Shown: positions 2,399 through 60,453, counted from the stretch's first letter. The stretch is 64,000 nt of DNA from an uncultured Alphaproteobacteria bacterium (GCA_944390355.1 CALXPT010000004.1:1077-65076), one strand, 5' to 3'. Notes: generated from the sequence alone by a model not told the origin. Made by a program: numbers and translations.

Positions 2399-4669
2399 TT
2401 AGAAAATTTCAACTCCGTGGTCATTTGCATATGCATATATTTGCGGACGTAGCGTTTTGCCGGTAGAATTCAGCAATTGGGTCATATAATCTTCTACCTC
2501 TGCTACATTTATGGTTCTTATCATACTCTTTACACGCCCGTATGTGGCTCCCGATGATGATAAATTTCTATACCCAAGACCTATTAAGGCAAATGCTTCT
2601 ACCGGTACGGAGGCCATTTCTCCGCATACGGAACAATAAACTTTGTGCTTGTTCGCCTTTTTTATTATCGTTCCCATTAACCTTAAAAACGGTGCCGATA
2701 ATACATCATAACGTTCGGATAAGCGCGGATTGCCTCTGTCGCAGGCAAAGAAAAATTGGGCTAAATCATTTGTTCCTACCGAAACAAAATCCGCCTGTTC
2801 CAATATCTCGTCTAACTGGAAAACTACGGAAGGGACTTCTATCATCAAACCGACGTTCATTTTGGCCGGTAGTTTGTCCGTGTTCTTTTTTACTTTTTCG
2901 TATTCAAGCATTAATGTCTCTTTGGCTTCTTCAAACTCAGATAAGTTTGATATCATCGGAAACATAACATTTAATTCTTTTCCCTCTGCCGCCTTGATAA
3001 ACGCATGAATTTGCTTACGCAAAATCGCCCTCCTGTCCAGCGTTATGCGAATCGAACGCCAGCCTATGGCCGGATTTTCTTCATCTAAGCCAGCCCAATA
3101 GGGCAAAAGCTTGTCTGAACCGACATCCAAACAGCGGAATATTACTTTGCGATAACCTGCCCTGTCCATTAATTCTTTATAATAGCCGATTTGTTGTTCT
3201 ACATTCGGCATTTCATTTGAGGCCATGAACGGTATTTCGGTTCGATATAAGCCTATCCCATCGCAATTTGTACTTTCTATATAATCCAAATCGAAATTCA
3301 TGCCGACATTGATATATTGTCCGATACGAACCCCATCAAGCGTTTGCGACGGCAATCTTTTTAGCTTAGCGAGTTTTTCTTGTTGCTGTTTTAATTCCTG
3401 TCGTTTGGCAATAAACCTTTTCTGCGTATCTTCGCTCGGATGCAAATAGACATAGCCTTCATTGCCGTCCAAGGCTATCAGCTCGCCGCTTTTGACTTCA
3501 TCATACAAGCCTTTAATCTTTACAATTACCGGTATATTCAAGGCTTTTGCTACTATTGCCACATGCATTGTCGGCGTTCCTTCTTCCAACAGCAAGCCTC
3601 TTATTTTGGTGTAATCGTAATCCATTAACTCTGCCGGACCCATGGTCTGCGCTATGATTACTATATCCTTGCTATCTTGTGCTATTTTGGCACTTTGCCC
3701 GAAATCTCCGTTCAAATATGCCAATAGGCGGTCTGACACATCTCTCAAGTCATGCAAACGTTCTTTAAGGTAGCCGTCCTGTGTGGACGAGAGACGATTC
3801 CACATGTCTTCATAAGCCCTTTCTACCGCCGCTTCCGCCGTTAAGCCGCCCATTACATTATCTGCTATTTTCTTAAACCACCCTTTATCTTTTGCAAACA
3901 TTAAGTAGGCATCTAAAATGTCTACATGCTCTCCCAGCCCTAATTTGGTTGAATTAAATTTCGAATCCAGATCATCATTCATTTGTTGATGGGCGATTGT
4001 CAACCTATCTAATTCTTTTTCTTTGTCTTCTGCAAAAATTTTGCTTACTGCATGGCGGCGATGATGCAATACGGCCTGTCCCAAACCGAATCCTTTGCTT
4101 AATGATATGCCCCTTATTTTGTCCTTGGACATTAATCCTCTGGACTTTATGAGTTCCGTTTTATATTCACTCATTTCATCTGACGATATTATGTCGGAAA
4201 TGAACATCGCCAACGTTTCCATCGTCTCTTGTTCTGTTTGTAAAAACTCATGTTTCTTTTTTGTTTGGGCTATCAAAACGCCTATTGCCTTATGACGAGA
4301 AACCAGCGGCACACCTAAAAATGATTTAAGCTCTTTTTCGGAAAACTTTTCTTTGGTTACAAATTTCGGATGCGATTGCGAATCCGATAAGGCCAGAGGA
4401 CGACAATTCTTGGCTACCGTTCCGACCAATCCTTCCCCTTGGCGCACGGATACCTTGTGCAGCGAATCCTCATTATATCCCGCAGAGGCAAACAGCTCAA
4501 AGTTGTTGTCTTCAAGCATGACAAAACATGACACACTATCATAATGCATCTCTTTTGAAATGATTTTTGTTATGACGTTCAGACGTCCAGATATATGTTC
4601 TTGTTCATCTGCCGTTTGTCTTAAAAGTTTTAGAATCCTAAATGCGGGACTTTCCGAATCTTTGGGCAT
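2399..4669 (-). CDS. ptsP: Phosphoenolpyruvate-protein phosphotransferase, nitrogen-PTS type (GAF + Enzyme I)
   Basis: 756 aa. N-terminal GAF-like region (GEGLVGTVAKNCRPLALSD), PEP-utilizer phospho-His region (TPTMHVAIVAKALNIPV) and a C-terminal TIM-barrel with GTNDLAQF and CGEMA motifs. Confidence 0.9.
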   Translation of the reverse strand: MPKDSESPAFRILKLLRQTADEQEHISGRLNVITKIISKEMHYDSVSCFVMLEDNNFELFASAGYNEDSLHKVSVRQGEGLVGTVAKNCRPLALSDSQSHPKFVTKEKFSEKELKSFLGVPLVSRHKAIGVLIAQTKKKHEFLQTEQETMETLAMFISDIISSDEMSEYKTELIKSRGLMSKDKIRGISLSKGFGLGQAVLHHRRHAVSKIFAEDKEKELDRLTIAHQQMNDDLDSKFNSTKLGLGEHVDILDAYLMFAKDKGWFKKIADNVMGGLTAEAAVERAYEDMWNRLSSTQDGYLKERLHDLRDVSDRLLAYLNGDFGQSAKIAQDSKDIVIIAQTMGPAELMDYDYTKIRGLLLEEGTPTMHVAIVAKALNIPVIVKIKGLYDEVKSGELIALDGNEGYVYLHPSEDTQKRFIAKRQELKQQQEKLAKLKRLPSQTLDGVRIGQYINVGMNFDLDYIESTNCDGIGLYRTEIPFMASNEMPNVEQQIGYYKELMDRAGYRKVIFRCLDVGSDKLLPYWAGLDEENPAIGWRSIRITLDRRAILRKQIHAFIKAAEGKELNVMFPMISNLSEFEEAKETLMLEYEKVKKNTDKLPAKMNVGLMIEVPSVVFQLDEILEQADFVSVGTNDLAQFFFACDRGNPRLSERYDVLSAPFLRLMGTIIKKANKHKVYCSVCGEMASVPVEAFALIGLGYRNLSSSGATYGRVKSMIRTINVAEVEDYMTQLLNSTGKTLRPQIYAYANDHGVEIF

Positions 4670-5809: not shown

Positions 5810-6694
5810 ATGAATTTTATTGATTTAGGTTTAAGTGAAAAAACCATTAAGGCTATTAATGAATTGGGAATCGTCGAACCGACTACCGTTCAGAATGATG
5901 TTATTCCCTCCATCTTGGACGGAAAAGATGTTTTTACCATTGCACCGCAGAGCTGCGGAAAAACTTGCTCGTATGTATTCCCTTTGCTCGATATTATCAG
6001 CAATGCTAATGCCGACAAGTCGCAAAAAGGTCCTAACATTTTGATTATTACACCTGATTCTCAGCAATCCGTTGCCGTTTCCGATCAGTTGGCTATTTTT
6101 AACAAATATCACGAAATTAATGAAGCTACCATCAAAGATAAAGAAGAAAATATTGATAACGAAGCTAATGTTGTTATTGGCTCTCCCGATTTGTTGGTTG
6201 AGCTGCTCGAATCGGAAAAAATCGACCTTTCCAAAACTAATATCTTGGTAGTTGATGATATTAATCTTATCAAAAAAAGAAAACAACTCGCAAATTTGGT
6301 CAAAGTATTAGATATTTTGCCGGCCGATAAACAAAATATTGTTTATACTAATCGTCGCTCCAAAGAAACTCAGGATATTCTTGATAAAATTCTTAAAGCT
6401 CCGCAAGAAGTTAAAGTTGATAAGAACAAAGAGCAAGAAGTTCAGCAAATTTTGCCTGCCGATACCGAAAAAGCTCTATCTTCCGCTAAGGTTTTATCTT
6501 CAGAAAGTACTGAGAATCCTGTTATCGACAAAAAAACTCAAAATAAGCAAAATGAAAGTCGTGTTCCTCAATTTCAGAAATTTGTTTCTCCCGTTAAAGA
6601 CAGAGAGGCTATTGAGCTTGTCAAAAAATTTAATACATTTAATCACAAGACTCCCGATTTCTTGACTTATAAGGGGATTGTCGTTAAAGACTAG
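5810..6694 (+). CDS. Degenerate DEAD-box helicase domain-1-only protein with a basic/acidic tail
   Basis: Q-motif-like FIDLGLSEKTIKAINELGIVEPTTVQ and Walker A APQSCGKT are present. DEAD is replaced by VDDI, SAT by YTN, and there is no helicase C domain. Confidence 0.6.
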   Translation: MNFIDLGLSEKTIKAINELGIVEPTTVQNDVIPSILDGKDVFTIAPQSCGKTCSYVFPLLDIISNANADKSQKGPNILIITPDSQQSVAVSDQLAIFNKYHEINEATIKDKEENIDNEANVVIGSPDLLVELLESEKIDLSKTNILVVDDINLIKKRKQLANLVKVLDILPADKQNIVYTNRRSKETQDILDKILKAPQEVKVDKNKEQEVQQILPADTEKALSSAKVLSSESTENPVIDKKTQNKQNESRVPQFQKFVSPVKDREAIELVKKFNTFNHKTPDFLTYKGIVVKD

Positions 6695-6753: not shown

Positions 6754-7728
6754 TTAGGTGATTTCCGTTACCGCTCTTAAGTTGCCTTCGCGGTTGATTT
6801 GGATTACGCGCAGTCTCCTGTGCATTTCTTGTATTGTCTTATTGCGGTCTGCCGTCGGGTAGGTATGCAAAATTCTATCCATAAATGCTTCATAGGCTGC
6901 TTCCGAACTCTCAGCATGGATGGTCGCTAAGCAGTTGTCGTGGCCCGAACCCATAAGCTCCCATATTGCGCCCGCATTTTGAGTCGATATCTCGCCCCCG
7001 ATAATTGCGTCCGGCGTAAACCTCACAACCAAGTCTATGATTTTGGCATAATCAAACTGGTTGGTTTGGTCGGTTCTGGACATCACCAAATGCACTCTGT
7101 TGGGGTGCGGAACTATCAACTCTCTCGTATCTTCTATTGTTACTATACGTTTATTTATATCAAGTATCTTCAACAAATTGTTCAAAAATGTTGTTTTTCC
7201 CGTCGATGTTGCTCCGCTTATTAAAATATGGTCGCCTCTCTTTATGCTTAACAATAGTCGCTCATAGGGATCACTTGGGTCTTTTATGTTCTTAAGCGGG
7301 TTTATCTTGTGCAGATTTTCTCCTTGCTTTATCCCGTAATCCTGCAAGCCAAATGCCACGTCATCGGCATGAACACGGATGGTTAGTGCTATGCCTCCGG
7401 TTAAGTCATTTTCATCATACATTACATTTTTGCCGCAAACTGCCGAAAAACGGTGGTCTCCGGGGATACTGGCATAAACTACCGGTGTTCCCGAAACCGG
7501 ATCAAACGGTAGTTCATATGTATTGGCTATAATATAAAGCAAGTCCGTCAGATATTCTTTGGAAAGTTTTTCATCTTTATACATTACCCACGGATATGCT
7601 CTCTTGCCACGCAGGCGCAACCATATCGTACCGGCATTATTTATTGCAACCTCTTCTATGTTGTCTTGGTTGTACCAATATGAAAGTGGTCTTAAGACTG
7701 ATTCTAATACCTTGAAACTGTCGGTCAT
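6754..7728 (-). CDS. virB11: VirB11-family T4SS ATPase
   Basis: 324 aa. Walker A ISGATSTGKTTFLNNLL, IVTIEDTRE, GGEISTQNAGA and the His-box CLATIHAES. It is the last gene of the virB-like operon. Confidence 0.9.
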   Translation of the reverse strand: MTDSFKVLESVLRPLSYWYNQDNIEEVAINNAGTIWLRLRGKRAYPWVMYKDEKLSKEYLTDLLYIIANTYELPFDPVSGTPVVYASIPGDHRFSAVCGKNVMYDENDLTGGIALTIRVHADDVAFGLQDYGIKQGENLHKINPLKNIKDPSDPYERLLLSIKRGDHILISGATSTGKTTFLNNLLKILDINKRIVTIEDTRELIVPHPNRVHLVMSRTDQTNQFDYAKIIDLVVRFTPDAIIGGEISTQNAGAIWELMGSGHDNCLATIHAESSEAAYEAFMDRILHTYPTADRNKTIQEMHRRLRVIQINREGNLRAVTEIT

Positions 7729-7737: not shown

Positions 7738-10700
7738 TTAAATGAGCTTGACGACGCTATCGTCTGTTTCCGGTGTTTGATTGCTTGTTCCGCCGCTGTC
7801 TTGGTTTATTCCGGGTTTGGGGCCACTCGTGTTGCTCATTGGAACTGCCGGAACTAAGCCTGTGCTTGAAGGCGGCGGCGGTACGGAACCGTTTATATTA
7901 CTTCTTTTGTTTGATGTTTCCATTTCACTGTCGTCAATAAACTTTTTGCTTTCCGCTTCTTCTCCATTATTTTGATAAAGTGCCTGATTATTACTGCCAC
8001 TTACACCCGTTGTCGGTCGATTGGATACATCTTCCTTAGCGGCTTGTGCCTCAACCTCTTTGTCATCAATTAAAATATTGCGGCGATTAAGTTCGGAATC
8101 TTCATCACTTCTTTCCGGCGTTCTCATCCACAAATCTATATTCGGATAAACTATAATGCGCGTGCCGGCCGGTACATATGTCAAGGGTTGGATGTTGCTT
8201 TTGTCTTGCAAAATTTCATTAAACACTTGATCCATTTGTTCCAAAAAATTGTCGCGGGCATCATTGGCTGCTTGTTGTCTAGGCGTTTCCGTCTCACTGG
8301 AACTATTGCTTTTAGGTGCCATCAGATATGCACTATAACTTGTTAAGGCCGTGGTCATTACCGGCAAAGTATATTTCTTAAACAACTGCTGGTCCAAATA
8401 GCCTAACGCTCCTCCTCGACCCATCGCATCACCCGTAATTCCTTGGAACTTAAATAATACACCGTCCGGACGAACCAAGCGTTCCCATGTTATTTGTACC
8501 CTTGCCGATGTCGTCGTGCTTTCTGTTGAACCGGTCATCGAATTGATTGTTCCCATTATGCGGCTGCCGGCAGGTATTATTACGTTACGTCCTTCTTCCG
8601 CATAGACATTCCTCTCCACTATCGCTGTTACCGGCGTCGGGTTATTGGTGTCTATTGAGCGCGCTATTACCGCAGGTATAGGCTTATCCGAAAATATCAT
8701 TTCGCTTAAATCTACCCGCCATGATGATACGGCTTTGGTTACACCTTCTTCATCCCAGTTCTTTTGATAGCCGTCTACCGATGACGGATTTACTTTGCTT
8801 GCGACATGTCCTACCTGTATATTTTCTCGCCTCAAATTTTGGGCAGCGGCTAATGCTGCGGCTCGTTGCGGGTCATACCTTTCTCCGGGACCGGTGCCTC
8901 CTCCGGGGCCGATATTAATCCTTCTGTCTCCTGAGATATAGGCTTCCGGTGAAATCGGTATCTTTGGTACATACATATTTTTTGGTGTTTGCGTGCCAAT
9001 GTAGTCGCCATTATTATCTATTACATATCCGTCGGAATTTACACGGCCGATGATATTGCCATTCTCATCAACTACCGTTCCGTCTTCCAATATATCTCCC
9101 AAATATGTTCCATCCGGTGATAGGGCGATGTTGATTGAATTAAGCGTTTCTTTCTTATACTCAATGTCGTCGTCTTTCATTTTCTTTTTATATTCGCCCA
9201 CTTCCGGCAAATCTTTTTGCGACTTTTGCGGCTTTATTCGCTCATACCAATTTGTTCCGCTACCACCTAAAATTGATCCGTCCGTTCCATATGCCAAACC
9301 ATTTTCATCTATCGTCCCGATTATATTATTATTTTCGTCAACAACCGTATTCCCTTCTTTGTAGCCGATGACATTGCCGTTTGCGTCGTATATTTTTTCT
9401 CGCCCGTCTTCAATGCTATAATATTGCAGTGAGTTGGCGGTTGCTATCAATTTATTTTCCGAATCAAAAATATTGCCGTCTTTTCCAAGATGTCCAAGTA
9501 CCTCTCCTTGCATTGATACAAAGTCGCCGTTCATCTGTAGTTCGCCCAAGACATTATTACTATCGTCCAATATAAAATAGTCTCTGTTGCCTCGAGCTTG
9601 AACCACGCCTTCGCCGTTTACGAAAAAGCCTTTTAATATTTTACCTATTCTTGTTCCGTCCAAGGCTTTCAGCGAACCGTCAAAACCTATTACGGCTTTC
9701 GTATTGTTATTATTATCATAAACATACAAATCATACAACGCATAACCTATCGGTGTGTCTTTTTCATCTCTTACAAAACCTTTTACATCTGTTTTGCCGA
9801 TTGATTTCCCTTCCGAGGACATAACATTACCATCCGGTGCGACACGCCCCAAAAATTTGTTGCTATTCGAAAAAGCATAACGATAGCGAAATGCTCTTCC
9901 TATACCGACATTCGAATCGTTAATTGCATTGCCGTTGGGCAAAATACGGCCGATTAACTGCTGTTTGTCATTTACGATTGAACCATCTAAAATAATTCGT
10001 CCGATTATTTTATTATTAAAGTTCATAACCGTGCTATATACAAGGCGACTTCCCAATACCTCTTGATTTTGCGAAATCAAAAAGCCTCTTTTATTTACGC
10101 AGCCAAGCAGCTTGTTTTCCGAATCTAAGGCTTTTCCTTCGGCGGTTATTGTTCCCAATACCTTATTGTTGCCGACCACAATACCTTCCGTTAAGTTGTG
10201 CCCTATATAGGTACCGCTGTCGTTTACCGCCTGATTGTTTAAAAGCATTCGCCCTAATTTAACATTGCGGAAATTTTTAACCTCTCCTGAGGTATCTACA
10301 TAACCGACCGTTTGACAATTATCATTAACAACCGTTCGATTATCCACCAAACCGCCTATCGTTGCTCCATTATTGTCTACAACCGTTTTATCGGATGTTC
10401 CTCGCCCGATAACAGCTCGGCTTAAGTCCTTTATTATACCATTTTCATTCATATATCCAAGCAATGCACCGCTTAAATCCAGCGCGATATTGCTCTTAAG
10501 TGCTTGCCCTACCGACGGCGAAAAATTCGTTGAACTTTCCGAATCCGTGCTAACCACCGAATTATCCGGCAATATCTTTGCCAATATTTTGTTCTTTGTA
10601 TCTAAAATGCGATTACCGCCACCTAACAGTCCCAGCGAATTTCCGACGAATGTTAATGCTGCCTTCGGGGATATTATACCGCCTAAGATATTGCCATTTG

Positions 10701-12129
10701 TCCGTACGGCCACTCCTGACTGTGTCATGTGCGCTTCTATCTTCGTACCGTTTTGCGATAGCATTCCATCCGCCGAAATTACTGCCGCATTCAATCCATT
10801 TTGACCAAAGACAAAGCTGTTTTGCAATAAACGCCCGCCCGTTGTTCCGTCTCCGTTATAAACATAACCGTAAGGCGAGGTTTGCTTGGTTTCTTCGCCA
10901 TCAATTATTTTTCCTTGAATTCCGGCTATTCCCAAGGGTTTGTTATTTAAATCATATACCTGATTGTAATTTAGGGTTTTACCCAACATGCGACCGTTAC
11001 TTTCATACACGGTGTCAAAATTCACAAAACCTATCGGGGCTCCTTCCAAAGAAATTGCTTTTCCGCTCCTTGATGATATGCCCTTTATTGTGCCTTTGTA
11101 ATCAAATATCGGCCCTGTGATATTTATATATCCCATAACTTTATTGTCCTTATCTACTCCGGTTCCGCGTGCTCCGATTGAACCGATTATTTCTCTTGAT
11201 AAGGCAATTTTCCCTTCCGGCATTAGACGGCCGACATACTCGCCGTTTTCATCATTTAAAGTCGCTGCCAAATCCAAAGAGTAGCCTATTATCTTGCCCT
11301 CTTTATCCGCTATTTGTCCATCCAGCTGCAAATAGCCGATAACCTTTCCCTTGTTAGTTACCTCACCGTTATAGGTTACAAATCCGATATATTCTCCATT
11401 TATACCAAAGGCATATCCGCTTTTTACGGCTCTGCCGATTACTTCGCTTTTTTCGTTATATGCTATGCCGTTGGCGTGTATAAATCCTATCTCTTCGCCT
11501 TCAAAATTCGTTATCTTTCCTCCGGGGACCATGCTGCCGATAAACTCACCTTTCGGCGAAATTATCATTTTGCTTGAGATTAGTTTTCCTTCCAGAGATA
11601 CTTCTCCTCCCATGCGGCGGTAGGCGTATCCGTCCGGCGTCATAAATCCGGCAACTTCGCCTTCCAAATTCATATAGGCTCCGTCTCCGGTCAAACGCCC
11701 TATGGTTTTTCCTTCATCCGAATAAACCAACCCCGGAGACAAAACGCCGCCGATGACTTTATAATAATCATCTACTACCAATCCCGAAGGCAATGCCTTG
11801 CCGATTATCTTTCCCGATGATGAACGAACCGTGCCGTCATTATTTACTTTACCCAAAAGTTTGTTGTCTACGCCTATGGCTATTCCTTGCGGGACAACCC
11901 CTCCGATTAAGCTTCCTTCAAAATTGACAATCAGACTGTCGGCTGTTACATTGCCGATTAACTCATTTTCATAGCTGACAACTTTTCCATCCGGAATGAC
12001 CTTGCCGATTAGGTCGCCGTTAAAATCTATCGCGGTGATTTCCGCCGCAGAAACCGTTTTTAGGGCAAGTACCGTTCCAAGCATACTCACCAAAAATCTT
12101 TTTAATATTTTTTTGCTTTGGACTTCCAA
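7738..12129 (-). CDS. virB10: Giant VirB10/TrbI homolog: signal peptide, ~930 aa of 17-residue repeats, VirB10 barrel domain, Pro/Ser-rich tail
   Basis: TTG start at 12129 with GGAGGA upstream. The C-terminal segment (about 8125..8720) reads PIPAVIARSID...IIPAGSRIMGT...RVQITWERLVRPDGV...GDAMGRGGALGYLDQQL...YVPAGTRIIVYP, matching TrbI/VirB10. The N-terminal two-thirds is a degenerate repeat (see findings). Confidence 0.85.
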   Translation of the reverse strand: MEVQSKKILKRFLVSMLGTVLALKTVSAAEITAIDFNGDLIGKVIPDGKVVSYENELIGNVTADSLIVNFEGSLIGGVVPQGIAIGVDNKLLGKVNNDGTVRSSSGKIIGKALPSGLVVDDYYKVIGGVLSPGLVYSDEGKTIGRLTGDGAYMNLEGEVAGFMTPDGYAYRRMGGEVSLEGKLISSKMIISPKGEFIGSMVPGGKITNFEGEEIGFIHANGIAYNEKSEVIGRAVKSGYAFGINGEYIGFVTYNGEVTNKGKVIGYLQLDGQIADKEGKIIGYSLDLAATLNDENGEYVGRLMPEGKIALSREIIGSIGARGTGVDKDNKVMGYINITGPIFDYKGTIKGISSRSGKAISLEGAPIGFVNFDTVYESNGRMLGKTLNYNQVYDLNNKPLGIAGIQGKIIDGEETKQTSPYGYVYNGDGTTGGRLLQNSFVFGQNGLNAAVISADGMLSQNGTKIEAHMTQSGVAVRTNGNILGGIISPKAALTFVGNSLGLLGGGNRILDTKNKILAKILPDNSVVSTDSESSTNFSPSVGQALKSNIALDLSGALLGYMNENGIIKDLSRAVIGRGTSDKTVVDNNGATIGGLVDNRTVVNDNCQTVGYVDTSGEVKNFRNVKLGRMLLNNQAVNDSGTYIGHNLTEGIVVGNNKVLGTITAEGKALDSENKLLGCVNKRGFLISQNQEVLGSRLVYSTVMNFNNKIIGRIILDGSIVNDKQQLIGRILPNGNAINDSNVGIGRAFRYRYAFSNSNKFLGRVAPDGNVMSSEGKSIGKTDVKGFVRDEKDTPIGYALYDLYVYDNNNNTKAVIGFDGSLKALDGTRIGKILKGFFVNGEGVVQARGNRDYFILDDSNNVLGELQMNGDFVSMQGEVLGHLGKDGNIFDSENKLIATANSLQYYSIEDGREKIYDANGNVIGYKEGNTVVDENNNIIGTIDENGLAYGTDGSILGGSGTNWYERIKPQKSQKDLPEVGEYKKKMKDDDIEYKKETLNSINIALSPDGTYLGDILEDGTVVDENGNIIGRVNSDGYVIDNNGDYIGTQTPKNMYVPKIPISPEAYISGDRRINIGPGGGTGPGERYDPQRAAALAAAQNLRRENIQVGHVASKVNPSSVDGYQKNWDEEGVTKAVSSWRVDLSEMIFSDKPIPAVIARSIDTNNPTPVTAIVERNVYAEEGRNVIIPAGSRIMGTINSMTGSTESTTTSARVQITWERLVRPDGVLFKFQGITGDAMGRGGALGYLDQQLFKKYTLPVMTTALTSYSAYLMAPKSNSSSETETPRQQAANDARDNFLEQMDQVFNEILQDKSNIQPLTYVPAGTRIIVYPNIDLWMRTPERSDEDSELNRRNILIDDKEVEAQAAKEDVSNRPTTGVSGSNNQALYQNNGEEAESKKFIDDSEMETSNKRSNINGSVPPPPSSTGLVPAVPMSNTSGPKPGINQDSGGTSNQTPETDDSVVKLI

Positions 12130-12132
12130 CCT

Positions 12133-15100
12133 TTAATTCCTCCGGTTCTTTGCGACTTCCTGCAAGGCATAGCCTGCAACTTTTTTATCTAAATCTATAT
12201 AGGAGCCGTTATTTTTGATATAGCCGATGTTGTTTCCTTCTTTACTTAAAACACTGCCATCTGCTGCCAATCGGCCGATGTATTCCCCGCCGTTACTCAA
12301 AATTGTTGCTCCGATTTTGAATACTCTTCCGAGTATATTATTTTTCTCATCAATTGCAAGCTCATTGCTCAGTAAATGCCCAATTACAACTCCGTCTTTG
12401 GATTTTACCGTGCCGTCCAACATCACATAGCCGGCAAACTTATCTTTATTATCTATAACAATATCGCCGTCTATTAACTCACCTGAAAGTTTGCCGTTTT
12501 TATTCACGATGCTGCCATCCGATAAAACTCGGCCAAAATTGCTATTATCTTCATTCACAACCGTGCCGTCCGGCATAACCGCTCCACTTACTTTTCCCTT
12601 AAAATCTATATATGAACTCCGCTTTAAGATATTTAAATCTTTATCCGTGGAGCCTCCGGGCAAAATTGCCGTTATATTATCATTTTTCAAATCCAACACA
12701 TTGCCCAAAGAATTCATCCGCCCTTTGTAGGTTCCCCATATATCTATCATGATATTTTCCGGTATTATTTCGCCGATGATTTCTCCGCTATTATTAATTA
12801 CTTGTTTATCTGACGTGGCTTTACCGATTTTTTTGCCTTCGGGTGAAATGACGCTACCATCCGAGACAACATTTCCCAGAAATGCTCCGTCATATCCTAT
12901 GGCAGGACCTTTGGATATTACACCGCCTTTATATTCGCCTTTATTGTCGATAAAACGTCCCTGTGCGTCAACTCTTCCCAGCGTATCTCCAAAGCGGCTT
13001 AGCACTATACCGTCATACACAACTTTACCCAAATCGTTACCAAAGAAATCAACAACCATTCCGGTCGGAATCGACTTTCCCAAAATACCATTATAAAAAT
13101 TAAAGCCATCTCCTTTTATGTTCCCTACGGATTTGCCTCCGGCATCATATACCAATCCATCCGGAAAAACACGACCGATAAAACTTCCTTGAGAATCGAC
13201 TATTATGGTCTGCGGATTAAGTGCTACTCCCTTTATTTGGTTTGCATCATTTACCAATACATTATTTGAAAGGAGGTGGTATGTACCATCTTTGGTTTTT
13301 AATTCGCCTTTATTATCCAGCGTATTTAAAAACTTGCCATCCATATCATAGCCTTGGATATGTGTTTGAATATGCCCAATATAACCACCGGATTTATTAA
13401 AAACATCTCCGTACGCACCGATACAACCTACCGGCAGACTGGCGGCATTAATTATTAAACCGTCATCTGAAACACGCCCAAGATATTCGCCGTCAAAAGA
13501 AACCGCTATTCCTTCTTTTTTGGCTCCGCCGATTATCTCTCCTTTATCATTTAAAACCGTACCATCCGGATTTATACAGCCGACATATTCACCTTTTTTA
13601 TTCCTTACCGTCCCATCATTTTGAATTTCTCCGATATAGTAACAATTATTGTCAAAGGCAGGGCCGGTACGAACCACCTCTCCTATGTAATTATTACTCT
13701 CATCGACAACTATACCTTCGGGCATAATTCTATACGGCAATTCTTGTGATTGCGCATCGCGTATCTTTCCGTCTTTTTCTAAAAATCCAACATTCCTACA
13801 ACCATAACCCACGACCAATCCGCCTTTAACCATGCGCGCTACTACTTTTGAACCATTTGCGTCTTTTACCAAATCATTTGATAAAACGCGGCCTAAAACA
13901 TCTCCCGTCGGACTAACAACGCTCCCGTCGTTTTTAACCTCTCCCAAAACTTCTCCTTTCGGGGTTATCGGGATTAAGTCTACCGATACCAATGAACCGA
14001 TTTCTCTTTGAATGGTTGAAACTATATTGCCGTCTTTATCTACATATCCGATAACCTTGCCGTTTTTATCAATTACTTTGCCATCCGGCGTTACATAGCC
14101 TATGATATTACCATTTTCATCTACCGCTAATTGAACCATTTCTCCCGCTCGGCCTATCACATTGCCGTCTTTATCAACCAACGTTCCGTCTTCCAGCATT
14201 TTTCCTATAATATTGCCGTTAAAATCAACGACATTGCCGTTTTCATCTATATAGCCGATTACATTGCCGTCTTTGTCATAGGCTAATCTTCGTTGGATGC
14301 TCGGTTTTCCAAGCTTTTCTGACGTTGTAACATTGCCGTTCTCGCCTATGCGCCCTATTATATTGCCATTGGCATCTACAATTGTTCCATCCGGCATAAC
14401 TACACCTATGGGATTGCCATTTTCATCGACTGCCACGCGCCCTGGTTTAGAAATTGTTCCTATGATATTACCATTGAGGTCGACAACCTCGCCATTCTCA
14501 TTTACGCGACCAATTACGTTGCCGTCCATATCAACAACCGTGCCGTCGGCTAAAACTCGTCCTATTATATTGCCGTCTTTGTCATAAACATAACCTGTTT
14601 CTACGGCTTTTCCTATGATTTCTCCTCGGTCATTAACTATACTGCCGTCCGGAAGCTTCTTGCCTATTTTTTTTCCTTCTTTATCATAGACTATGTCATC
14701 TGAGCCTATATATCCTAGGACATTGCCATTTTTATCTATGCCTATTTGACTATTGGATGCAACACCAACTACATTGCCATCCGCATCTACTACTAAGCCT
14801 TGAGAATTAACTCTTCCGATTATATTTCCATTCTTGTCGCGGACGTAGCCTTCTTTGTCAACCCAACCGATTTCTTTGCCATCAGGTCCAACTGCCATAC
14901 TGATTTTTTCATAATCTTTATTCACATCTTTGGCGGTTAAATTTCCCTCGGTTATACCTTCACAAAAATTACAATCTTCTTTTCTGATAGCATTTCCTAT
15001 GACCGGAACTTTTTCTGATTTTGTGTTTGCTTCGCCCAAATTGGTTTCATACCAACTTATGATGAAATTATTTTGCACGTTTCCGGCGATAACCGGCGTC

Positions 15101-15564
15101 CATTTCATTACGATATTACACGTTTCCTTGCCAGTTAGCGTAACTCCCGTACACTCCTCATTAAACACAAAACCATCTGCCGGAGGTTCTGCCAGATTCA
15201 CCGAAACAATTTTTATCGTACTCTTTCCGGTTGTTCCTACTGTTAAAACATTGTCGGCGGACGTTCCTAACACAACTTGCCCTAACGGTACGGGATTTGG
15301 CGTCAAGGTTATCGGCAAGGCTGCATCCTCGACATCACCAAATTGGATAATGTCGGAATTTAAAGGGCTGACGGCTCCAATATTCAGCGCATCATCATTA
15401 TCGGTAAAAATCGGGTCAGTATAATCTTTTGTTTCTTCTCCGCCGGTGGCTAATAAGTACAAACCAAACAAAAAAATTGATAAACAAGTTACGCCAATCA
15501 CAAGCATTATGCGGTTGGTTTTCTTAACATACGCTTCTGAATGTGTTAAGACTTCTTTACTCAT
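12133..15564 (-). CDS. Membrane-anchored giant repeat protein (N-in TM anchor, ASH/Ig-like beta-sandwich, ~900 aa of the same 17-residue repeat as VirB10)
   Basis: ATGA overlap with the virB9 stop, and it ends 3 nt before the virB10 start. TM IMLVIGVTCLSIFLFGLYLLA. The beta-sandwich-like region reads LGQVVLGTSADNVLTVGTTGKSTIKIVSVNL...CTGVTLTGKETCNIVMKWTP. Repeats follow, e.g. DKDGNIIGRVLADGTVVDMDGNVIGRVNENGEVVDLNGNIIG. Confidence 0.8.
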   Translation of the reverse strand: MSKEVLTHSEAYVKKTNRIMLVIGVTCLSIFLFGLYLLATGGEETKDYTDPIFTDNDDALNIGAVSPLNSDIIQFGDVEDAALPITLTPNPVPLGQVVLGTSADNVLTVGTTGKSTIKIVSVNLAEPPADGFVFNEECTGVTLTGKETCNIVMKWTPVIAGNVQNNFIISWYETNLGEANTKSEKVPVIGNAIRKEDCNFCEGITEGNLTAKDVNKDYEKISMAVGPDGKEIGWVDKEGYVRDKNGNIIGRVNSQGLVVDADGNVVGVASNSQIGIDKNGNVLGYIGSDDIVYDKEGKKIGKKLPDGSIVNDRGEIIGKAVETGYVYDKDGNIIGRVLADGTVVDMDGNVIGRVNENGEVVDLNGNIIGTISKPGRVAVDENGNPIGVVMPDGTIVDANGNIIGRIGENGNVTTSEKLGKPSIQRRLAYDKDGNVIGYIDENGNVVDFNGNIIGKMLEDGTLVDKDGNVIGRAGEMVQLAVDENGNIIGYVTPDGKVIDKNGKVIGYVDKDGNIVSTIQREIGSLVSVDLIPITPKGEVLGEVKNDGSVVSPTGDVLGRVLSNDLVKDANGSKVVARMVKGGLVVGYGCRNVGFLEKDGKIRDAQSQELPYRIMPEGIVVDESNNYIGEVVRTGPAFDNNCYYIGEIQNDGTVRNKKGEYVGCINPDGTVLNDKGEIIGGAKKEGIAVSFDGEYLGRVSDDGLIINAASLPVGCIGAYGDVFNKSGGYIGHIQTHIQGYDMDGKFLNTLDNKGELKTKDGTYHLLSNNVLVNDANQIKGVALNPQTIIVDSQGSFIGRVFPDGLVYDAGGKSVGNIKGDGFNFYNGILGKSIPTGMVVDFFGNDLGKVVYDGIVLSRFGDTLGRVDAQGRFIDNKGEYKGGVISKGPAIGYDGAFLGNVVSDGSVISPEGKKIGKATSDKQVINNSGEIIGEIIPENIMIDIWGTYKGRMNSLGNVLDLKNDNITAILPGGSTDKDLNILKRSSYIDFKGKVSGAVMPDGTVVNEDNSNFGRVLSDGSIVNKNGKLSGELIDGDIVIDNKDKFAGYVMLDGTVKSKDGVVIGHLLSNELAIDEKNNILGRVFKIGATILSNGGEYIGRLAADGSVLSKEGNNIGYIKNNGSYIDLDKKVAGYALQEVAKNRRN

Positions 15565-17165
15565 TGGGTTCTTACTACGCTACAAAATACACCGTTTCTG
15601 CCTAAATGACTACAAATTAAATCTCCTTCATCCAACTTGCCTATCGGCCCTATCCTCAAATGAAACAGTTCTTTGCCATGTCCGTCTGCCGGTGTGTCTA
15701 CCGAATAAAACGGCTCATACCCTTTTAACAAGCTCGGGTATTTTTTGGTTAAATCCGCCCATAATGCTTCAAGATTTTCGACATTTGAATCGACACCTAA
15801 CTCTATTGAAACATCTCCGTCACCGGCTCCGCTTAGCCCTTGTCCATAGCCGACCGCTCCGGCAAATTGATTGTTTTGATAATGCCTATTATTTGCTATA
15901 TGCTGCATATTTGCATAGTCAAACCCATTAGCATCCGATAAGTGAGCGTCGCCCGTGCCAAAATCTCCCGTACTGTTATAACTGCCGTTATAACCGCCGC
16001 CGTTGGTCGTCGGGTAGCCTAAATTTCCTGGCATTCCGCCTGAAAGTTCCGGTGTTGTCGGTCCTCTGCCGTCTAATATATTTCCGTCTCCGCGCTCTTT
16101 GCTGTTCCTCCCCGGAATCGGTGCTTGAACATACCATTCATTCTCAAATAAATCGTCTGCATAGCTGACATTTTCCATGCCGACATCATCTGAACGGCGC
16201 ATTTTTAAACAGACAATCCTCTTGCCGTTGCGCAAGACCATGTCGCCTATTCCTTCAACAATTATTAAGCGATTATTCGGACCTTTGGTGCGGAATCCGA
16301 CAGGTACTTCCGAACGCTCGACTATCATCGTTACAATCGGGCGTTGGGTCATATTCAATGCTTTTGCCCCTAAATCAATATAGGTGAAAATGTCGTCTCT
16401 CCATACTCGTTCCGGTGCTATCACTACATCGTCCGGATTTGGAACATAAATCTCTATATCGAATCTGAATTTTGACGGGTCTACCGGAATTTCTTCAATC
16501 CAATTATTTCTTTGATTCCTTTTGGTTAGCTTGGATGTTACCGATTTTCCAGATGCCGAATAATTTCCTGCACCGCGGCTATTGCCATAAGCGTGATTGC
16601 CGCCCTCGCTACCATTTTCCAGAACTTCTATATCAATTATTGAATTGGTCAAACGCTCGGTATTTACGCCCTCGCTCTTAACATAAAATACATATCGATT
16701 GCCGGAACGACCAAATAAAATCACGTTGGTATCTACACCTACATTCGCTCCTTTTCGAGGATATAAGAGAATCGTGTTCGGCCCCGTGATTTGGCCGTCA
16801 ATCGTTGCATTATCGCCTATATACATATCCTCAATTAATTCCCAATCCGGAAAATTAACCAGTGTCATCATCCCTTCTCTTAAGCGAATTGGCAAAACCA
16901 AATCCGGAGACCAATAGTATTTTGAATAGGCAGGACGGCTCTGTCCTTCTCCGAGATTTTGCAAAGGGTCAAGCCAAGCGGCCTGTGTCATTCCAAGCGA
17001 ACTAAAACCAGCATAGTCCATATTCATCGGAGCGTATGAGCCTTGGCTTTGGTCGGCATTTTGATCCAAATTATTCATTGTTACTTCGGCAAAAGACTGC
17101 TTGATTAATGCTACCGCCGCTACGCCTAGAATGAGATATTTAGTGAACTTAGAAACCATTTTCAC
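15561..17165 (-). CDS. virB9: VirB9/CagX-family outer-membrane core component with a Gly/Asn-rich linker and a C-terminal SPOR domain
   Basis: Signal peptide ILGVAAVALIKQSFA|EV. VirB9 N-domain (LVLPIRLREGMMTLVNFP...NRYVFYVKS) and C-domain (WRDDIFTYIDLG...IVCLKMR). The last ~85 aa fit the SPOR pattern (EALWADL...LFHLRIGPIGKLDEGDLICSHLGRNGVFCSVV). Confidence 0.85.
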   Translation of the reverse strand: MKMVSKFTKYLILGVAAVALIKQSFAEVTMNNLDQNADQSQGSYAPMNMDYAGFSSLGMTQAAWLDPLQNLGEGQSRPAYSKYYWSPDLVLPIRLREGMMTLVNFPDWELIEDMYIGDNATIDGQITGPNTILLYPRKGANVGVDTNVILFGRSGNRYVFYVKSEGVNTERLTNSIIDIEVLENGSEGGNHAYGNSRGAGNYSASGKSVTSKLTKRNQRNNWIEEIPVDPSKFRFDIEIYVPNPDDVVIAPERVWRDDIFTYIDLGAKALNMTQRPIVTMIVERSEVPVGFRTKGPNNRLIIVEGIGDMVLRNGKRIVCLKMRRSDDVGMENVSYADDLFENEWYVQAPIPGRNSKERGDGNILDGRGPTTPELSGGMPGNLGYPTTNGGGYNGSYNSTGDFGTGDAHLSDANGFDYANMQHIANNRHYQNNQFAGAVGYGQGLSGAGDGDVSIELGVDSNVENLEALWADLTKKYPSLLKGYEPFYSVDTPADGHGKELFHLRIGPIGKLDEGDLICSHLGRNGVFCSVVRTQ

Positions 17166-17184: not shown

Positions 17185-17910
17185 TTATTTTAATTTATTA
17201 TAGGTTAATGAATATTGCAAAACCGTAAACCCTACCGGATTTTTTAATCTCTCTCCATATTTTACCGTTTTAGGACGATAGGCTATACGTAAGCTGGCCG
17301 TCCAATAGTTAATATCCGGTGATTTTGATTCCGGATACATGTCTTGCGTTTCATACTCGACTTGCCATAACCCACGACCAAGCTCATTTACCGTTAATAT
17401 GCGAACTTTTCTTTCCAGATTACGTTTTTGAATAATCTCAAGCGCGGGTTTTGCCGTATTCTTCAAAAAATCATCATAAACTGCCTGAGACGACATATCC
17501 TGCAGCATGCTCCCCGGCATCCAGCGTGATTCCATCTCGGGGACATCTCTTTCAAATGTGCTTCGCAGCAAAACATATTCTCGAACAAAAACCTCGGTAA
17601 TGGCGTTTTCATCTTCCATTCCTTCTATCTGCTTGATATTATAAACTTGTTCTTCTTTGTTTTGAAAAGTTAACAAAAAAGGCTCAACCCTATATAACGG
17701 CAATACCTGTGTTATCGCCAACAGCAACACTATATTGCAACATAAGCTGATTGCCGTTATGATTGCAAAAGCTCTTGCCGTCCACAGATAGCGTTTCTCA
17801 CCTACATTACTCACAAAGATATCTTTATCCTCACGCATTTTTAGCTTTTCGCGCGGGGCTTGCCCTATGAGTTTTTGCTTGGTATTATTTTCACCGATTT
17901 GGTCGACCAT
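17185..17910 (-). CDS. virB8: VirB8-family bitopic inner-membrane T4SS protein (copy 1)
   Basis: 241 aa. The N-terminal cytoplasmic stretch and TM (AFAIITAISLCCNIVLLLAI) are followed by an NTF2-like domain ending WTASLRIAYRP...NPVGFTVLQYSL. Confidence 0.8.
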   Translation of the reverse strand: MVDQIGENNTKQKLIGQAPREKLKMREDKDIFVSNVGEKRYLWTARAFAIITAISLCCNIVLLLAITQVLPLYRVEPFLLTFQNKEEQVYNIKQIEGMEDENAITEVFVREYVLLRSTFERDVPEMESRWMPGSMLQDMSSQAVYDDFLKNTAKPALEIIQKRNLERKVRILTVNELGRGLWQVEYETQDMYPESKSPDINYWTASLRIAYRPKTVKYGERLKNPVGFTVLQYSLTYNKLK

Positions 17911-17928: not shown

Positions 17929-18117
17929 TTAAATTGTTTCGATATACCAATCCGGCAGATTTTTAGGCAAATCTAATTGCAAACACGAGCACGGAGAAAG
18001 TTTTAGTTCATCTATGCCTTTTCCTACTCCTATCGGTTCCGCTTCGTAATATGAGCCAAATATACCACAGGCTGTCAACAAAGCCGCAGATAAAATGATT
18101 AATATTTTTTTTGACAT
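17929..18117 (-). CDS. virB7: Small lipoprotein in the VirB7 position
   Basis: 62 aa with lipobox LLTAC|G. It sits between the two virB8 paralogs and upstream of virB9. The assignment rests on size, lipobox and position only. Confidence 0.5.
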   Translation of the reverse strand: MSKKILIILSAALLTACGIFGSYYEAEPIGVGKGIDELKLSPCSCLQLDLPKNLPDWYIETI

Positions 18118-18246: not shown

Positions 18247-18996
18247 TTAAAATGAAACTTCTGTTTGTGAATATCTGGTTACAGTGAAACCCAACGGATT
18301 AATCAACCTTAGTCCGACAAACTGGCGTTCAGGAAAGAAAAATGCCGTTACCGATGCCGTCCAATATCCTACCGAAAGCGTCATGCCCTTGGTTTTATCA
18401 TTGCTACCGTCGGACAAATCATAAGTTATAAAATCAACTTTCCATATCGGACTATTCTCTCCGCCCAATTTGTTTATGGATATTATTTCAACCTCCCTGA
18501 CCATTTTGCTTTTTATTATCAGAGGCCACATCTCTTCGCGATATTCATCAAATTTTGAAAATACATATTCAGATGATAAAAAGTTTATCATTCCTCCGGG
18601 GTACCAGCGCAACATCATTTCTCGCTCATCCCTTATAATGGTATTGCGGAGAATAACATATTGTTTTACGAAAAGCTCCATTAATTGTTTTTTGGAGGCC
18701 ATGTCTTTGGCTATCGGCTCATAGCGCACAATTCCGTCCGATGTATCTTGCTTGATTATCAAAAACGGCTCTACCGTTACCTGCGGTGCCAAATTAAACA
18801 ATGACAATGATGCACTTAAAAACAGCAACAAAGACAGAACCGCAAACATTATAAACATTCTAGATAACCATCTGTAATAATGGTATTTTGCGGTGATTAT
18901 TCTTTTTTCTTCCTGTTCTATGAAATCAGGATGATTGGGGGTTTTATCTTCAATACCTAATGTCTTAACATTATTTAACTGCGGTTCGCTATTCAT
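18247..18996 (-). CDS. virB8: VirB8-family protein (copy 2, divergent paralog)
   Basis: 249 aa with the same topology as copy 1 (TM FIMFAVLSLLLFLSASLSLF) and the same C-terminal signature WTASVTAFFFP...NPLGFTVTRYSQ. Confidence 0.8.
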   Translation of the reverse strand: MNSEPQLNNVKTLGIEDKTPNHPDFIEQEEKRIITAKYHYYRWLSRMFIMFAVLSLLLFLSASLSLFNLAPQVTVEPFLIIKQDTSDGIVRYEPIAKDMASKKQLMELFVKQYVILRNTIIRDEREMMLRWYPGGMINFLSSEYVFSKFDEYREEMWPLIIKSKMVREVEIISINKLGGENSPIWKVDFITYDLSDGSNDKTKGMTLSVGYWTASVTAFFFPERQFVGLRLINPLGFTVTRYSQTEVSF

Positions 18997-22890: not shown

Positions 22891-24073
22891 CCGTTGTCTC
22901 GCTGCATATGTATTTATCTAATGTAAATGTTGCTATATCCGAATCTACCGCGCTATCTATCTTTTCAAATTTAGCCATTTCGGCTGAAGTTTTTAACTTT
23001 AAGTCCATAGTCTTCAGTTTTATTAATTTTGCAAGCTCTTTAATTATCATGATTGTCGTTTGCGTATCCGTTGCATTTGCTCCGATTGAACCATCGGTTG
23101 TGTCGGTTCGATTTGCCAACTTTTGGGTTAATATTTTGGCATCGTTCAAATCTCTTTTAATTACGGCTGCCTGTATAAACGTATCTACTGCCGTATTTGC
23201 CGCCGTATTCGTCCGATTGGCTCGGCGCGATGTTATGCTTTCTTGATCTACCGGTGAGCCGTCTGCTACAAAGTTCTTTTCCGTATTTTGTTTTAATTCT
23301 TCTTCCGGATTAAATGATTTTACATCTGAGAGTAATTTATCCGTTACTTTCTGCGTCCACTCTTGTGCTTGCTTATCCGCTGCTGCTTTCATGCTTGTCA
23401 ACGCAGCGTTTACATCCGTCAGCTTGGCAACATCTTCGCTTGTAACCTCTTTTTCCGTTGCCAGCATTAATGTTTGATACTCTTTTATTTTGGTATTGTT
23501 TTTTTCTAACTGTTTGGTTAATTCTTCCTTCTTTTCCGGATGTTCCTTTATTTCATTTTGTATTTCTTGATTGTTTTTTTGCAGTGCTTCTATCTTTCCT
23601 TGATACTCTTTATTGCTGGCTTCTCTTTTGGTGTTTATTTGGTCTAAAAGCTCCTGTTGTTGCTGCTCCAAATCTGTCATTTTTTGCACTTTTTCTATCT
23701 TCTCGGTTAAGTTTGTGGCAAAGCCATCTTCTTCTGCTTCCTGCTCCTTTTGAGCTTGTTCCTCTAATTTTTCTTCTGCCAAATCTATGCTTGCTCCCAG
23801 AGGGTCTTCTTTAATCTGTTCGGCTGTTGTCTTGGCATCATTTATGATTGTTTGCATTTGTTTGGCGTCTTCTACATACGAACCTATTGTTTTGATAACT
23901 GCCGAATTGCCGACATTATCCATTGTCTTTTTGGCATTATCAAAAAAATTGCTTACCGCGGTTACAACCGTTTTGGGCGAATTTCCTACATCTATTTTCA
24001 ATTTTGCTTCTGAAATATTTGCGGATATCATCCACATCATGAGCCAGGAAGTCAAAATAATTACTTTTTTCAT
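22871..24073 (-). CDS. 400-aa secreted coiled-coil protein (T4SS operon)
   Basis: Signal peptide MKKVIILTSWLMMWMISANISEA and long E/K/Q-rich helices. Its start overlaps the upstream gene and its stop overlaps the downstream gene. Confidence 0.65.
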   Translation of the reverse strand: MKKVIILTSWLMMWMISANISEAKLKIDVGNSPKTVVTAVSNFFDNAKKTMDNVGNSAVIKTIGSYVEDAKQMQTIINDAKTTAEQIKEDPLGASIDLAEEKLEEQAQKEQEAEEDGFATNLTEKIEKVQKMTDLEQQQQELLDQINTKREASNKEYQGKIEALQKNNQEIQNEIKEHPEKKEELTKQLEKNNTKIKEYQTLMLATEKEVTSEDVAKLTDVNAALTSMKAAADKQAQEWTQKVTDKLLSDVKSFNPEEELKQNTEKNFVADGSPVDQESITSRRANRTNTAANTAVDTFIQAAVIKRDLNDAKILTQKLANRTDTTDGSIGANATDTQTTIMIIKELAKLIKLKTMDLKLKTSAEMAKFEKIDSAVDSDIATFTLDKYICSETTDGGGNE

Positions 24074-24960: not shown

Positions 24961-24963
24961 CTT

Positions 24964-29987: not shown

Positions 29988-30024
29988 ATTCTTTCCCCTT
30001 GTTTTTATTTCATTCGATTTGGAA

Positions 30025-32582: not shown

Positions 32583-32678
32583 GGTTGTATTGGTTATAAG
32601 TTGCGTCTCGAGCTTGATTAATTGTTTTCAACATGTATTATAGGTATTAAGAACATGAGAATTTATTGCTTAAGGAAT

Positions 32679-34908: not shown

Positions 34909-34928
34909 TTTTCGTAAGGATATTTACC

Positions 34929-37650: not shown

Positions 37651-37664
37651 CCGGAGTAAAAACC

Positions 37665-39356: not shown

Positions 39357-39379
39357 AATAGAAAAGAAAGAGGTTAATT

Positions 39380-40498: not shown

Positions 40499-40502
40499 GC
40501 TT

Positions 40503-41872: not shown

Positions 41873-41896
41873 AATACCTGATTTCTCTTTCGTAAA

Positions 41897-42587: not shown

Positions 42588-42612
42588 TTTTTCTCCTTTG
42601 CCAATACCTAGG

Positions 42613-60452: not shown

Positions 60453-60453
60453 A

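Follow-up and report, generated by a model that had tools for sequence, protein, structure and literature searches.

A putative split VirB10 carrying beta-flower hairpin arrays in a type IV secretion locus of gut Alphaproteobacteria

How are the two membranes of the cell envelope linked by VirB10 when its membrane anchor and its barrel appear to lie on separate proteins? This question is raised by a stretch of 64,000 nucleotides from an uncultured Alphaproteobacteria bacterium (GCA_944390355.1 CALXPT010000004.1:1077-65076; referred to here as the window, with positions counted from its first letter). Within a virB-type locus for a type IV secretion system (T4SS), two adjacent giant open reading frames (ORFs), here called gene A (12133-15564; 1143 residues) and gene B (7738-12129; 1463 residues), lie between virB9 and virB11, the position expected of VirB10; these, like all T4SS features given below, are on the minus strand. 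VirB10 is the T4SS subunit that, in the usual account from Agrobacterium and pKM101, spans both membranes as a single chain and relays energy-dependent signals from the ATPases to the pore. The canonical protein forms a 13- or 14-fold outer membrane core together with VirB7 and VirB9 and undergoes ATP-dependent conformational switching. An initial annotation of the window, made from the DNA alone, had read A and B as a VirB10 split or duplicated across two genes, and both ORFs were confirmed at the positions it gave. Our own reading, which we hold at a probability of about 0.72, is that VirB10 underwent fission and that its two halves re-associate in the periplasm.

The two genes and their domains

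Judged by its homologies, gene B is the C-terminal half of a split VirB10, and its barrel half is VirB10 by sequence, fold, and gene position. The TrbI/VirB10 beta-barrel, which had been placed at about 8125-8720, occupies residues 1145-1334 (8128-8697) and matches Pfam TrbI (PF03743) at 7.2e-35 (121 bits, against a cutoff of 35) and the NCBIfam VirB10 domain at 2.2e-30. When the barrel was compared with PDB sequences by phmmer, ComB10 was matched at 2.9e-21, along with CagY, TrwE, TraF, and Xanthomonas VirB10, and the ComB10 alignment covers the region of the two-helix antenna within the barrel (residues 1246-1312; 8194-8394). An AlphaFold2 (AF2) model of the C-terminal part of B shows barrel strands and two long antenna helices (residues 1246-1269 and 1283-1312), separated by a polar loop, with a local predicted local distance difference test score (pLDDT) of about 45-69; the top 25 Foldseek matches of this model are all VirB10-family barrels (TMt 0.35-0.64). 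Beyond the barrel lies an acidic and then Pro/Ser-rich tail (residues 1335-1463; 7741-8127), also seen in the initial annotation, most of which is predicted to be disordered (pLDDT <50 for residues 1370-1463, which are residues 490-583 of the model). Identity across residues 1351-1440 is only 19-25%; identities here and below were taken in 30-residue blocks against the window sequence over about 70 species.

At its other end, B starts with a predicted Sec signal peptide (residues 1-28; 12046-12129), composed of a KKILKR n-region, a 12-residue h-region, and a VSA↓AE site, and the hydrophobicity of this N terminus remains below the level of a transmembrane (TM) segment (maximum, 1.52). An AxA-type site is found in all 72 of the B orthologues: position -1 is A in 64, S in 7, and G in 1, and position -3 is A in 51, V in 11, L in 5, T in 3, and S in 2. 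The leaders that close in this site are variable, first positively charged and then hydrophobic, and no block of B is less conserved than the signal region (18% identity); a near-invariant EITAIDFNGDLIGKV follows right after the site. A variable leader joined to a conserved mature start is the pattern of a cleaved signal peptide, and we infer that B is cleaved, as had been proposed for it in place of a TM anchor. Cleavage would be predicted to yield the semi-tryptic N-terminal peptide (A/Q)EITAIDFNGDLIGK.

Gene A, on the same kind of evidence, is the N-terminal half of the split VirB10 and has no barrel. Its first 39 residues (15448-15564) hold the cytoplasmic motif MSKEvLTHSEaYVKKTNRIIL and then a single TM helix, and A has one strongly hydrophobic segment, near residues 16-40 (Kyte-Doolittle maximum, 2.49). 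All full-length orthologues start with MSKExLTHSExYVKKTNRIIL, and a hydrophobic helix some 22 residues long comes next; this N terminus of motif and TM segment is conserved as well in the fused and repeat-free VirB10s described below. The AF2 model of A (mean pLDDT, 81.7; predicted TM-score, 0.68) consists of a helix at residues 9-39, a disordered linker, a beta-sandwich at residues 85-193, and 106 short strands reaching to residue 1133. The sandwich (14986-15312) is ASH/PapD-like; Foldseek matched it to the ASH domains of CEP192 and HYDIN (6fvi, TMt 0.64; 2e6j, TMt 0.65; probability, 1.0), and it is also matched in repeat-free VirB10s, with the Pfam ASH match in A itself being weak (E = 1.8e-4, below the cutoff). 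Invariant cysteines are found within the ASH domain (C138 and C149), just past it (C198 and C201), and in the repeats (C589, C641, C663, and C714), and they fit a periplasmic location for both the ASH domain and the array of A. The arrangement in the initial annotation, of a cytoplasmic N terminus, one TM segment, an Ig-like sandwich, repeats, and no barrel, is thus borne out. By sequence rules, the difference in topology between a TM-anchored A and a B with a signal peptide extends across the full-length orthologues.

Could A and B nevertheless be a single gene that a nonsense mutation or sequencing error has interrupted, leaving a pseudogene or a read-through pair? In the window, the two share a reading frame with a single stop codon between them, and this is what such an explanation has to offer. 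However, the junction (12130-12143) is that of a gene start: a consensus Shine-Dalgarno sequence, GGAGGA (12138-12143), lies inside the end of A, followed by the TAA stop (12133-12135), one AGG codon (12130-12132), and the TTG start of B, 9 nt downstream of the GGAGGA, with the signal peptide after it. Upstream, the stop of virB9 overlaps the start of A as ATGA, the coupling already noticed in the initial annotation.

Relatives of the locus speak to the same point. One genome per species was scanned with the B barrel as query, giving 80 loci, all from uncultured gut Alphaproteobacteria, including "Candidatus Scatocola," metagenome-assembled genomes (MAGs) labeled "Azospirillum sp.," and CAG:495. 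In every one of the 70 related species with enough upstream DNA, an A/B pair is present between virB9 and virB11, in the order virB8, virB9, A-like, B-like, virB11, so that the pairing proposed from a single genome is conserved; the 70 complete pairs have A-like proteins of 1,068-1,574 residues and B-like proteins of 1,420-2,194 residues. The gap from the stop of A to the start of B is typically 0-6 nt, and the reading frame is shared in only 16 of 73 pairs and differs in the other 57. Therefore, A and B are two genes and not one broken gene. Nor is the stop between them an assembly error, since an identical A followed by an identical 1463-residue B is listed in 59 public assembly blocks, of which 23 contigs were read, and the same stop recurs in these independent assemblies. 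Given this, and that both new ends are conserved (see below), a broken gene is scarcely credible. An alternative genetic code or read-through was rejected as well, given the TAA stop and the mostly different frames in relatives. The split is real and old. Public labels of these proteins (hypothetical, DUF3659, or YD-repeat) miss their VirB10 identity.

Fused and repeat-free relatives and the direction of the change

A divergent match (P0159) led to a locus, L081, with one ORF holding the TM segment and ASH domain and another holding repeats and TrbI. As a split locus it was rejected and not counted, the break between its 276- and 1906-residue genes being a 10-N scaffold gap. With the N-terminal module of L081 as query, 27 loci were found in a sister lineage that includes "Acetobacter sp. 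CAG:977," UBA6411, and UMGS1296, and the 24 gap-free loci were used. In all of these, a single ORF of 2,032-2,683 residues between virB9 and virB11 holds the anchor, the ASH domain, the repeats, and the barrel in one chain. A is colinear with residues 8-1192 of a fused protein (E = 5.6e-132) and B with residues 880-2307 (E = 3.7e-148), in agreement with the proposal that the anchor and barrel halves of VirB10 sit on two polypeptides. An anchor on the barrel's own chain, as in other VirB10s, is lacking in B and sits on A; fused orthologues and repeat-free relatives have it on the same chain.

The view that A is no piece of VirB10 but a separate accessory or adhesin-like beta-flower protein, which lies in the operon by chance and has repeats in common with VirB10, has some attraction: A has no barrel, public sources give it only as "DUF3659 domain-containing protein," and the repeat is found also on an unrelated CpaB/RcpC protein of a Tad pilus, so that the module is mobile between proteins. 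It does not sit easily with the homology of A's TM and ASH N terminus to the N termini of fused and repeat-free VirB10s, with the colinearity of A and the fused protein, or with the fused-lineage loci, none of which has an extra A-like gene. We therefore regard an accessory protein as very improbable.

How widespread are the two forms? An HMMER scan of 1.84 billion representative proteins returned 106 clusters at E < 1e-30. These include at least 17 further fused-type clusters (50% identity clusters; 1,498-2,406 residues), with the N terminus SSSEQYVKKSNR followed by a TM helix, and about 11 split-type clusters; below both come ordinary VirB10s of 500-630 residues with a TM N terminus and without repeats. 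A hidden Markov model (HMM) of the TM and ASH module, built from A and the fused proteins, matches these repeat-free VirB10s at 24-60 bits, at residues of about 15-210, N-terminal to TrbI. The best repeat-free match, P0287, is encoded in a canonical virB4...virB8-virB9-virB10-virB11-virD4 locus of a Rhodobacterales MAG. The presence of this module in repeat-free proteins indicates that TM helix, ASH domain, linker, and barrel is the ancestral order, and by comparison of these sequences the repeats are an insertion between the ASH domain and the barrel.

The direction of change was addressed with a neighbor-joining tree of the barrel domain (73 sequences, 234 columns, and 200 bootstraps). Split forms are monophyletic in 184 of the 200 bootstraps and nested among fused forms in 193. 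With a single-chain outgroup and this nesting, one fission event within the fused lineage is the most economical account, making the split the derived state. The lengths agree: the median of A plus B is 2,657 residues (range, 2,549-3,510) and that of the fused proteins 2,307 (2,032-2,683), which argues against a large partial duplication and fits a simple fission. The other option in the initial annotation, a duplicated VirB10, is thus not supported. In the tree, a barrel-only VirB10 of 381 residues (P0275, on a 1.6-kb contig) with a signal- or lipoprotein-like N terminus falls inside the fused clade; possibly it marks another, independent split immediately ahead of the barrel, or else it is an artifact of gene calling on a short contig.

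Together, these comparisons show the following history. The ancestor was a VirB10 of about 500-630 residues, with a cytoplasmic tail, TM helix, ASH domain, linker, and TrbI barrel. In one gut alphaproteobacterial lineage, some 2,000 residues of 17-residue beta-hairpins then expanded between the ASH domain and the barrel, and in one sub-lineage, to which the organism of the window belongs, fission took place at a site within the array of repeats. Gene A, on the upstream side, has kept the inner membrane anchor, and gene B, on the downstream side, has gained a signal peptide. Fused and split forms in related organisms amount to a natural experiment on the need for covalent continuity in VirB10.

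The repeat arrays, the new ends, and a possible assembly

The degenerate 17-residue unit noticed in the initial annotation was recovered quantitatively. The lag-17 glycine autocorrelation is 0.52 in A (z = 16) and 0.32 in B (z = 10.2; 1,000 shuffles), with harmonics at lags 34 and 51. It is weaker in the middle of the B array (residues 340-640; z = 3.7), and no lag-17 signal was found in the B barrel or tail. An iterated HMM gave the unit consensus VDENGNVIGRVVPDGIV, in agreement with the earlier consensus made by hand; a super-period of 68 or 85 residues, corresponding to modules of four or five hairpins, gave no clear signal in the sequence. In A, the array covers residues 222-1133 (12166-14901), where the 106 short strands of the AF2 model, between residues 221 and 1133, make up about 53 hairpins and Pfam lays down 10 five-hairpin Bflower_2 stretches. 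In B, the array covers residues 29-1050 (8980-12045), about 1,020 residues with a degenerate middle part and seven Bflower_2 stretches, and thus by length about 60 hairpins. The earlier estimate had been some 50 units per protein.

By profile match, the repeat of A and B is of the Pfam beta-flower (PF21785, Bflower_2; PF21784, Bflower; clan CL0395)/DUF3659 type. The scores for A are 207 bits for Bflower_2 (4.6e-62), 92.8 bits for DUF3659 (1.2e-26), and 84.5 bits for Bflower (9.4e-24); those for B are 194 bits for Bflower_2 (5e-58), 50.6 bits for Bflower, and 35.7 bits for DUF3659, with cutoffs of 38 bits for Bflower_2, 25 for Bflower, and 24.8 for DUF3659. The repeat had been described as unrecognized; it does belong to named families, but none of the three is a characterized T4SS or adhesin repeat family. 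The beta-flower fold was defined from AlphaFold models only, with its function unknown and a semiconserved [DNEQ]xxG motif at the hairpin tip (Durairaj et al. 2023, PMC10584680). The same tip motif is present in the unit consensus of A and B, which share short antiparallel strands with the family. The beta-flowers described so far are single domains with a length of only about 96 residues, whereas A and B string 50-60 hairpins along each protein. The fold itself is a closed shallow barrel of 8, 10, or 12 strands with 4-, 5-, or 6-fold symmetry; in the AF2 model of A the repeat region is made of short hairpins throughout, which may close into individual five-petal flowers or run on as one continuous sheet. 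A phmmer search of PDB sequences with A gave no match, and in a Foldseek search with its model no solved structure matched the repeat array. In the literature, we found no link between beta-flower or DUF3659 proteins and T4SSs; A and B would place a fold known only from AlphaFold models in a defined molecular machine.

An Rhs/YD shell was also entertained for the arrays and rejected, as neither an Rhs core nor a toxin domain is present and no YD-shell is among the top 50 Foldseek matches. Weak Rhs-type matches (RHS_repeat, 33.7 bits; TIGR01643, 41 bits) probably reflect hairpins of similar shape.

The CpaB/RcpC protein mentioned above (P0311; L110:1349-4051) has 900 residues, about 650 of which are beta-flower/DUF3659 repeat, and is encoded in a Tad/Flp pilus locus with a secretin, a CpaF-like ATPase, TadB/C, and TadE. 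Like A, it would bear the repeat on an inner-membrane-anchored periplasmic component, and its gene adjoins that of the secretin; it differs from A and B in belonging to another machine, in its anchor domain, and in being unsplit. This protein suggests that the beta-flower repeat is a general periplasmic building block of envelope-spanning machines.

If the split cut the repeat array in two, do the resulting ends bear any mark of it? The best-conserved parts of the repeat regions are in fact the two ends that the split made. The last 30 residues of A (1114-1143; 12136-12225), a candidate docking end with a short predicted C-terminal helix and the terminal motif ...EVAKNRRN, have 85% identity, compared with 31-81% in other blocks of A, and EVAKNRRN is present in 61 of 70 A orthologues. 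In deep-branching split lineages, A ends in ...EVAeNRRN or ...EVAqNRRN directly before B. The mature N terminus of B (residues 29-150; 11680-12045), which starts with AEITAIDFNGDLIGKVIPDGKVV and is the other candidate docking end, has 69-81% identity over residues 31-150, compared with 20-57% in the rest of the B repeats and 62-86% in the barrel. Both the motif at the end of A and that at the start of B (EITAIDFNGD...) are absent from the fused proteins. Because conservation within the repeat regions peaks at the two new termini, with motifs that fused proteins lack, we regard these ends as putative docking sites, and on this pattern of conservation A and B probably come together again in the periplasm.

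One can envision an assembly along these lines. A would sit in the inner membrane with its N terminus in the cytoplasm, and its ASH domain and about 53 hairpins would lie in the periplasm. B would be exported by Sec and lose its signal peptide; its barrel would assemble under the outer membrane, together with VirB9 and probably a small lipoprotein, the pore would be formed by its two-helix antenna, and its hairpin array would hang into the periplasm. The two arrays would then re-associate noncovalently, most likely through the ...EVAKNRRN and EITAIDFNGD... ends, and so rebuild the link from inner to outer membrane that a single-chain VirB10 normally provides. Total array length differs by more than 900 residues between species, which makes a straight spacer of fixed length unlikely; the array more likely takes the form of a bulky ring or cage that surrounds the channel in the periplasm. 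A more specific version, that the two beta-flower arrays form a noncovalent hetero-oligomeric periplasmic superstructure in place of the covalent continuity of VirB10, is one that we put forward tentatively, at somewhat under even odds. Should it be correct, the superstructure would, at about 14 copies of each protein, amount to several MDa, and the beta-flower fold would have its first known biological role, as a building block of an envelope-spanning machine. Signals from the inner membrane ATPases to the outer membrane pore would have to cross a noncovalent joint, or else the T4SS works without a continuous VirB10.

That last possibility is the main rival. A and B may derive from one VirB10 and yet no longer touch: B, with a periplasmic array of its own, would then form the outer membrane core by itself, A would form a separate structure anchored in the inner membrane, and the machine would function with no connection through VirB10 from one membrane to the other. 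Covalent linkage has been lost in at least 70 species whose machine genes are intact, and the wide variation in array length argues against a precisely fitted joint. But constraint within the repeat regions is strongest at the new termini, which carry motifs confined to the split lineage; this would be hard to explain for free ends, and the genes for A and B stay tightly coupled. We consider such an uncoupling unlikely, though it is to be taken seriously.

Several further points weigh against fission with re-association. The contact between A and B is a putative one, which also favors uncoupling, and cleavage of B is deduced from sequence rules and conservation. The AF2 model of the C-terminal part of B is of low confidence (pLDDT 53). 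The barrel tree is distance based, by neighbor joining, and covers 234 columns, and the strict monophyly of all giant forms with respect to the outgroup is weak (57/200). When the C-terminal 90 residues of A and the N-terminal 90 residues of B were mapped onto fused proteins by BLAST, the cut point was ambiguous, with the repeats aligning at several positions. Finally, VirB6, VirD4, and a relaxase were not found in the window. The split that the initial annotation proposed, for its part, is supported, having passed every test able to refute it.

How does this VirB10 compare with others? With the canonical VirB10/TrbI proteins (A. tumefaciens VirB10, pKM101 TraF, R388 TrwE, and Xanthomonas VirB10), it shares the TrbI barrel and two-helix antenna, and the canonical cytoplasmic tail and single TM helix are present on A, on the fused orthologues, and on the repeat-free relatives. 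It differs in having the anchor and barrel on two polypeptides, in the signal peptide of the barrel half, in the ASH domain and about 2,000 residues of hairpins that replace a short Pro-rich linker, and in the disordered tail of about 130 residues after the barrel. Helicobacter pylori CagY (1,927 residues) is likewise a VirB10 of unusual size, in which a very large repeat region precedes the barrel, and the B barrel matches that of CagY by sequence (E = 2.8e-8) and by fold (TMt 0.62-0.64). CagY is a single chain, however, and its repeats are of a different kind, encoded by long, near-identical, recombining DNA repeats. The DNA encoding the 17-residue hairpins of A and B is degenerate, the best repeat families being 20-56 nt long with most copies 60-80% identical, and Tandem Repeats Finder detected no relevant tandem arrays in it. 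A cagY-like recombination cassette, which the initial annotation had raised, is therefore ruled out.

Host-interacting systems, that of CagY among them, are known to include giant VirB10s with large repeat regions, and for the repeat region of CagY surface display has been proposed. Might the hairpin arrays of A and B be an adhesin or an antigenically variable coat on the cell surface? The organisms live in the gut, and the number of repeats varies between species, as such a role would allow. The arrays, however, are N-terminal to a barrel that lies under the outer membrane, and that of A is tethered to the inner membrane, which would place both in the periplasm; the DNA repeats are degenerate and without recombination cassettes, and the sequences are fairly conserved rather than hypervariable. 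Surface display is accordingly improbable, and a periplasmic location is preferred.

Legionella DotG is also comparable, having an inner membrane anchor, a long repeat region, and a C-terminal VirB10-like domain, and Foldseek matches the B barrel to DotG-type structures (9ngw, TMt 0.55; 7muq, TMt 0.53). DotG is a single chain, and its pentapeptide repeats have a period of 5, in contrast to the period of 17 in A and B, neither of which matches a Pentapeptide profile. The repeats are thus unlike those of both CagY and DotG, as had been anticipated, and would represent a third independent way to a giant VirB10. We found no description in the literature of VirB10 fission or of a beta-flower VirB10.

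The surrounding locus

The order of the T4SS genes is two virB2, a virB3-like ORF, virB4, four ORFs without a recognized family, two virB8, virB9, A, B, and virB11. The virB11 ATPase gene (6754-7728; Pfam T2SSE, 1.9e-21) lies directly downstream of B, and virB9 (15561-17165; 534 residues; Pfam CagX, 3.7e-11) directly upstream of A. This VirB9 is unusually long, with the CagX profile covering residues 81-321 only. The two virB8 paralogues (17185-17910 and 18247-18996) each match Pfam VirB8 and enclose an ORF for a 62-residue lipoprotein (17929-18117) with the lipobox LLTAC. This ORF has no Pfam match, is also called as a gene in independent assemblies, and is probably the equivalent of VirB7. 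At the far end of the locus are virB4 (26757-29189) and two genes for VirB2/TrbC pilins (29601-30083 and 30025-30396); the small two-helix ORF between them (about 29179-29469) has no Pfam match and is probably VirB3. Paired VirB2/TrbC pilins and paired VirB8 proteins make up the duplication pattern of this locus, which is similar to that of the Rickettsiales vir homologue system.

Between virB4 and the virB8 genes, four consecutive ORFs of 1294, 400, 296, and 565 residues with signal-peptide-like starts (19006-26661) occupy the usual place of virB5 and virB6. They have no significant Pfam or NCBIfam match, and a polytopic, VirB6-like membrane protein was not found in any part of the window. 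The T4SS block is flanked by housekeeping genes (ispG, rodZ, ptsP, and an isochorismatase gene); the locus is chromosomal and has been kept across many species of common uncultured gut Alphaproteobacteria. In the sub-lineage of the window, housekeeping genes come after virB11. Some other species of the split lineage have four extra genes there, for proteins of about 800, 200, 425, and 230 residues (L055:12092-17352, with similar loci in L056-L078); these have no Pfam match and hence include no recognizable VirD4. On the virB11 side of the window, a DEAD-box helicase ORF on the plus strand (5810-6694; 294 residues) is without Helicase_C, and its end faces virB11. Its orthologue in L081 is longer, at 482 residues; it includes Helicase_C and is found next to the T4SS block on its virB8 side. 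This difference suggests that the edge of the locus is a rearrangement breakpoint.

A complete type IVb pilus locus adjoins the T4SS genes on the plus strand (30660-43690). It encodes a TcpQ-like protein, a secretin, a PilO-like protein, two T2SSE ATPases, T2SSF, and two bundlin/PilS-type pilins (41270-41872 and 42015-42587), together with three ORFs of 640, 495, and 223 residues without a family match. Farther along, genes for a VWA-domain protein, a PP2C phosphatase, and a eukaryotic-type Ser/Thr kinase are clustered at 46612-49512, again on the plus strand. GC content falls to 0.285-0.338 across 58001-64000, from about 0.40 elsewhere in the window, and this stretch may be an island or an AT-rich intergenic region.

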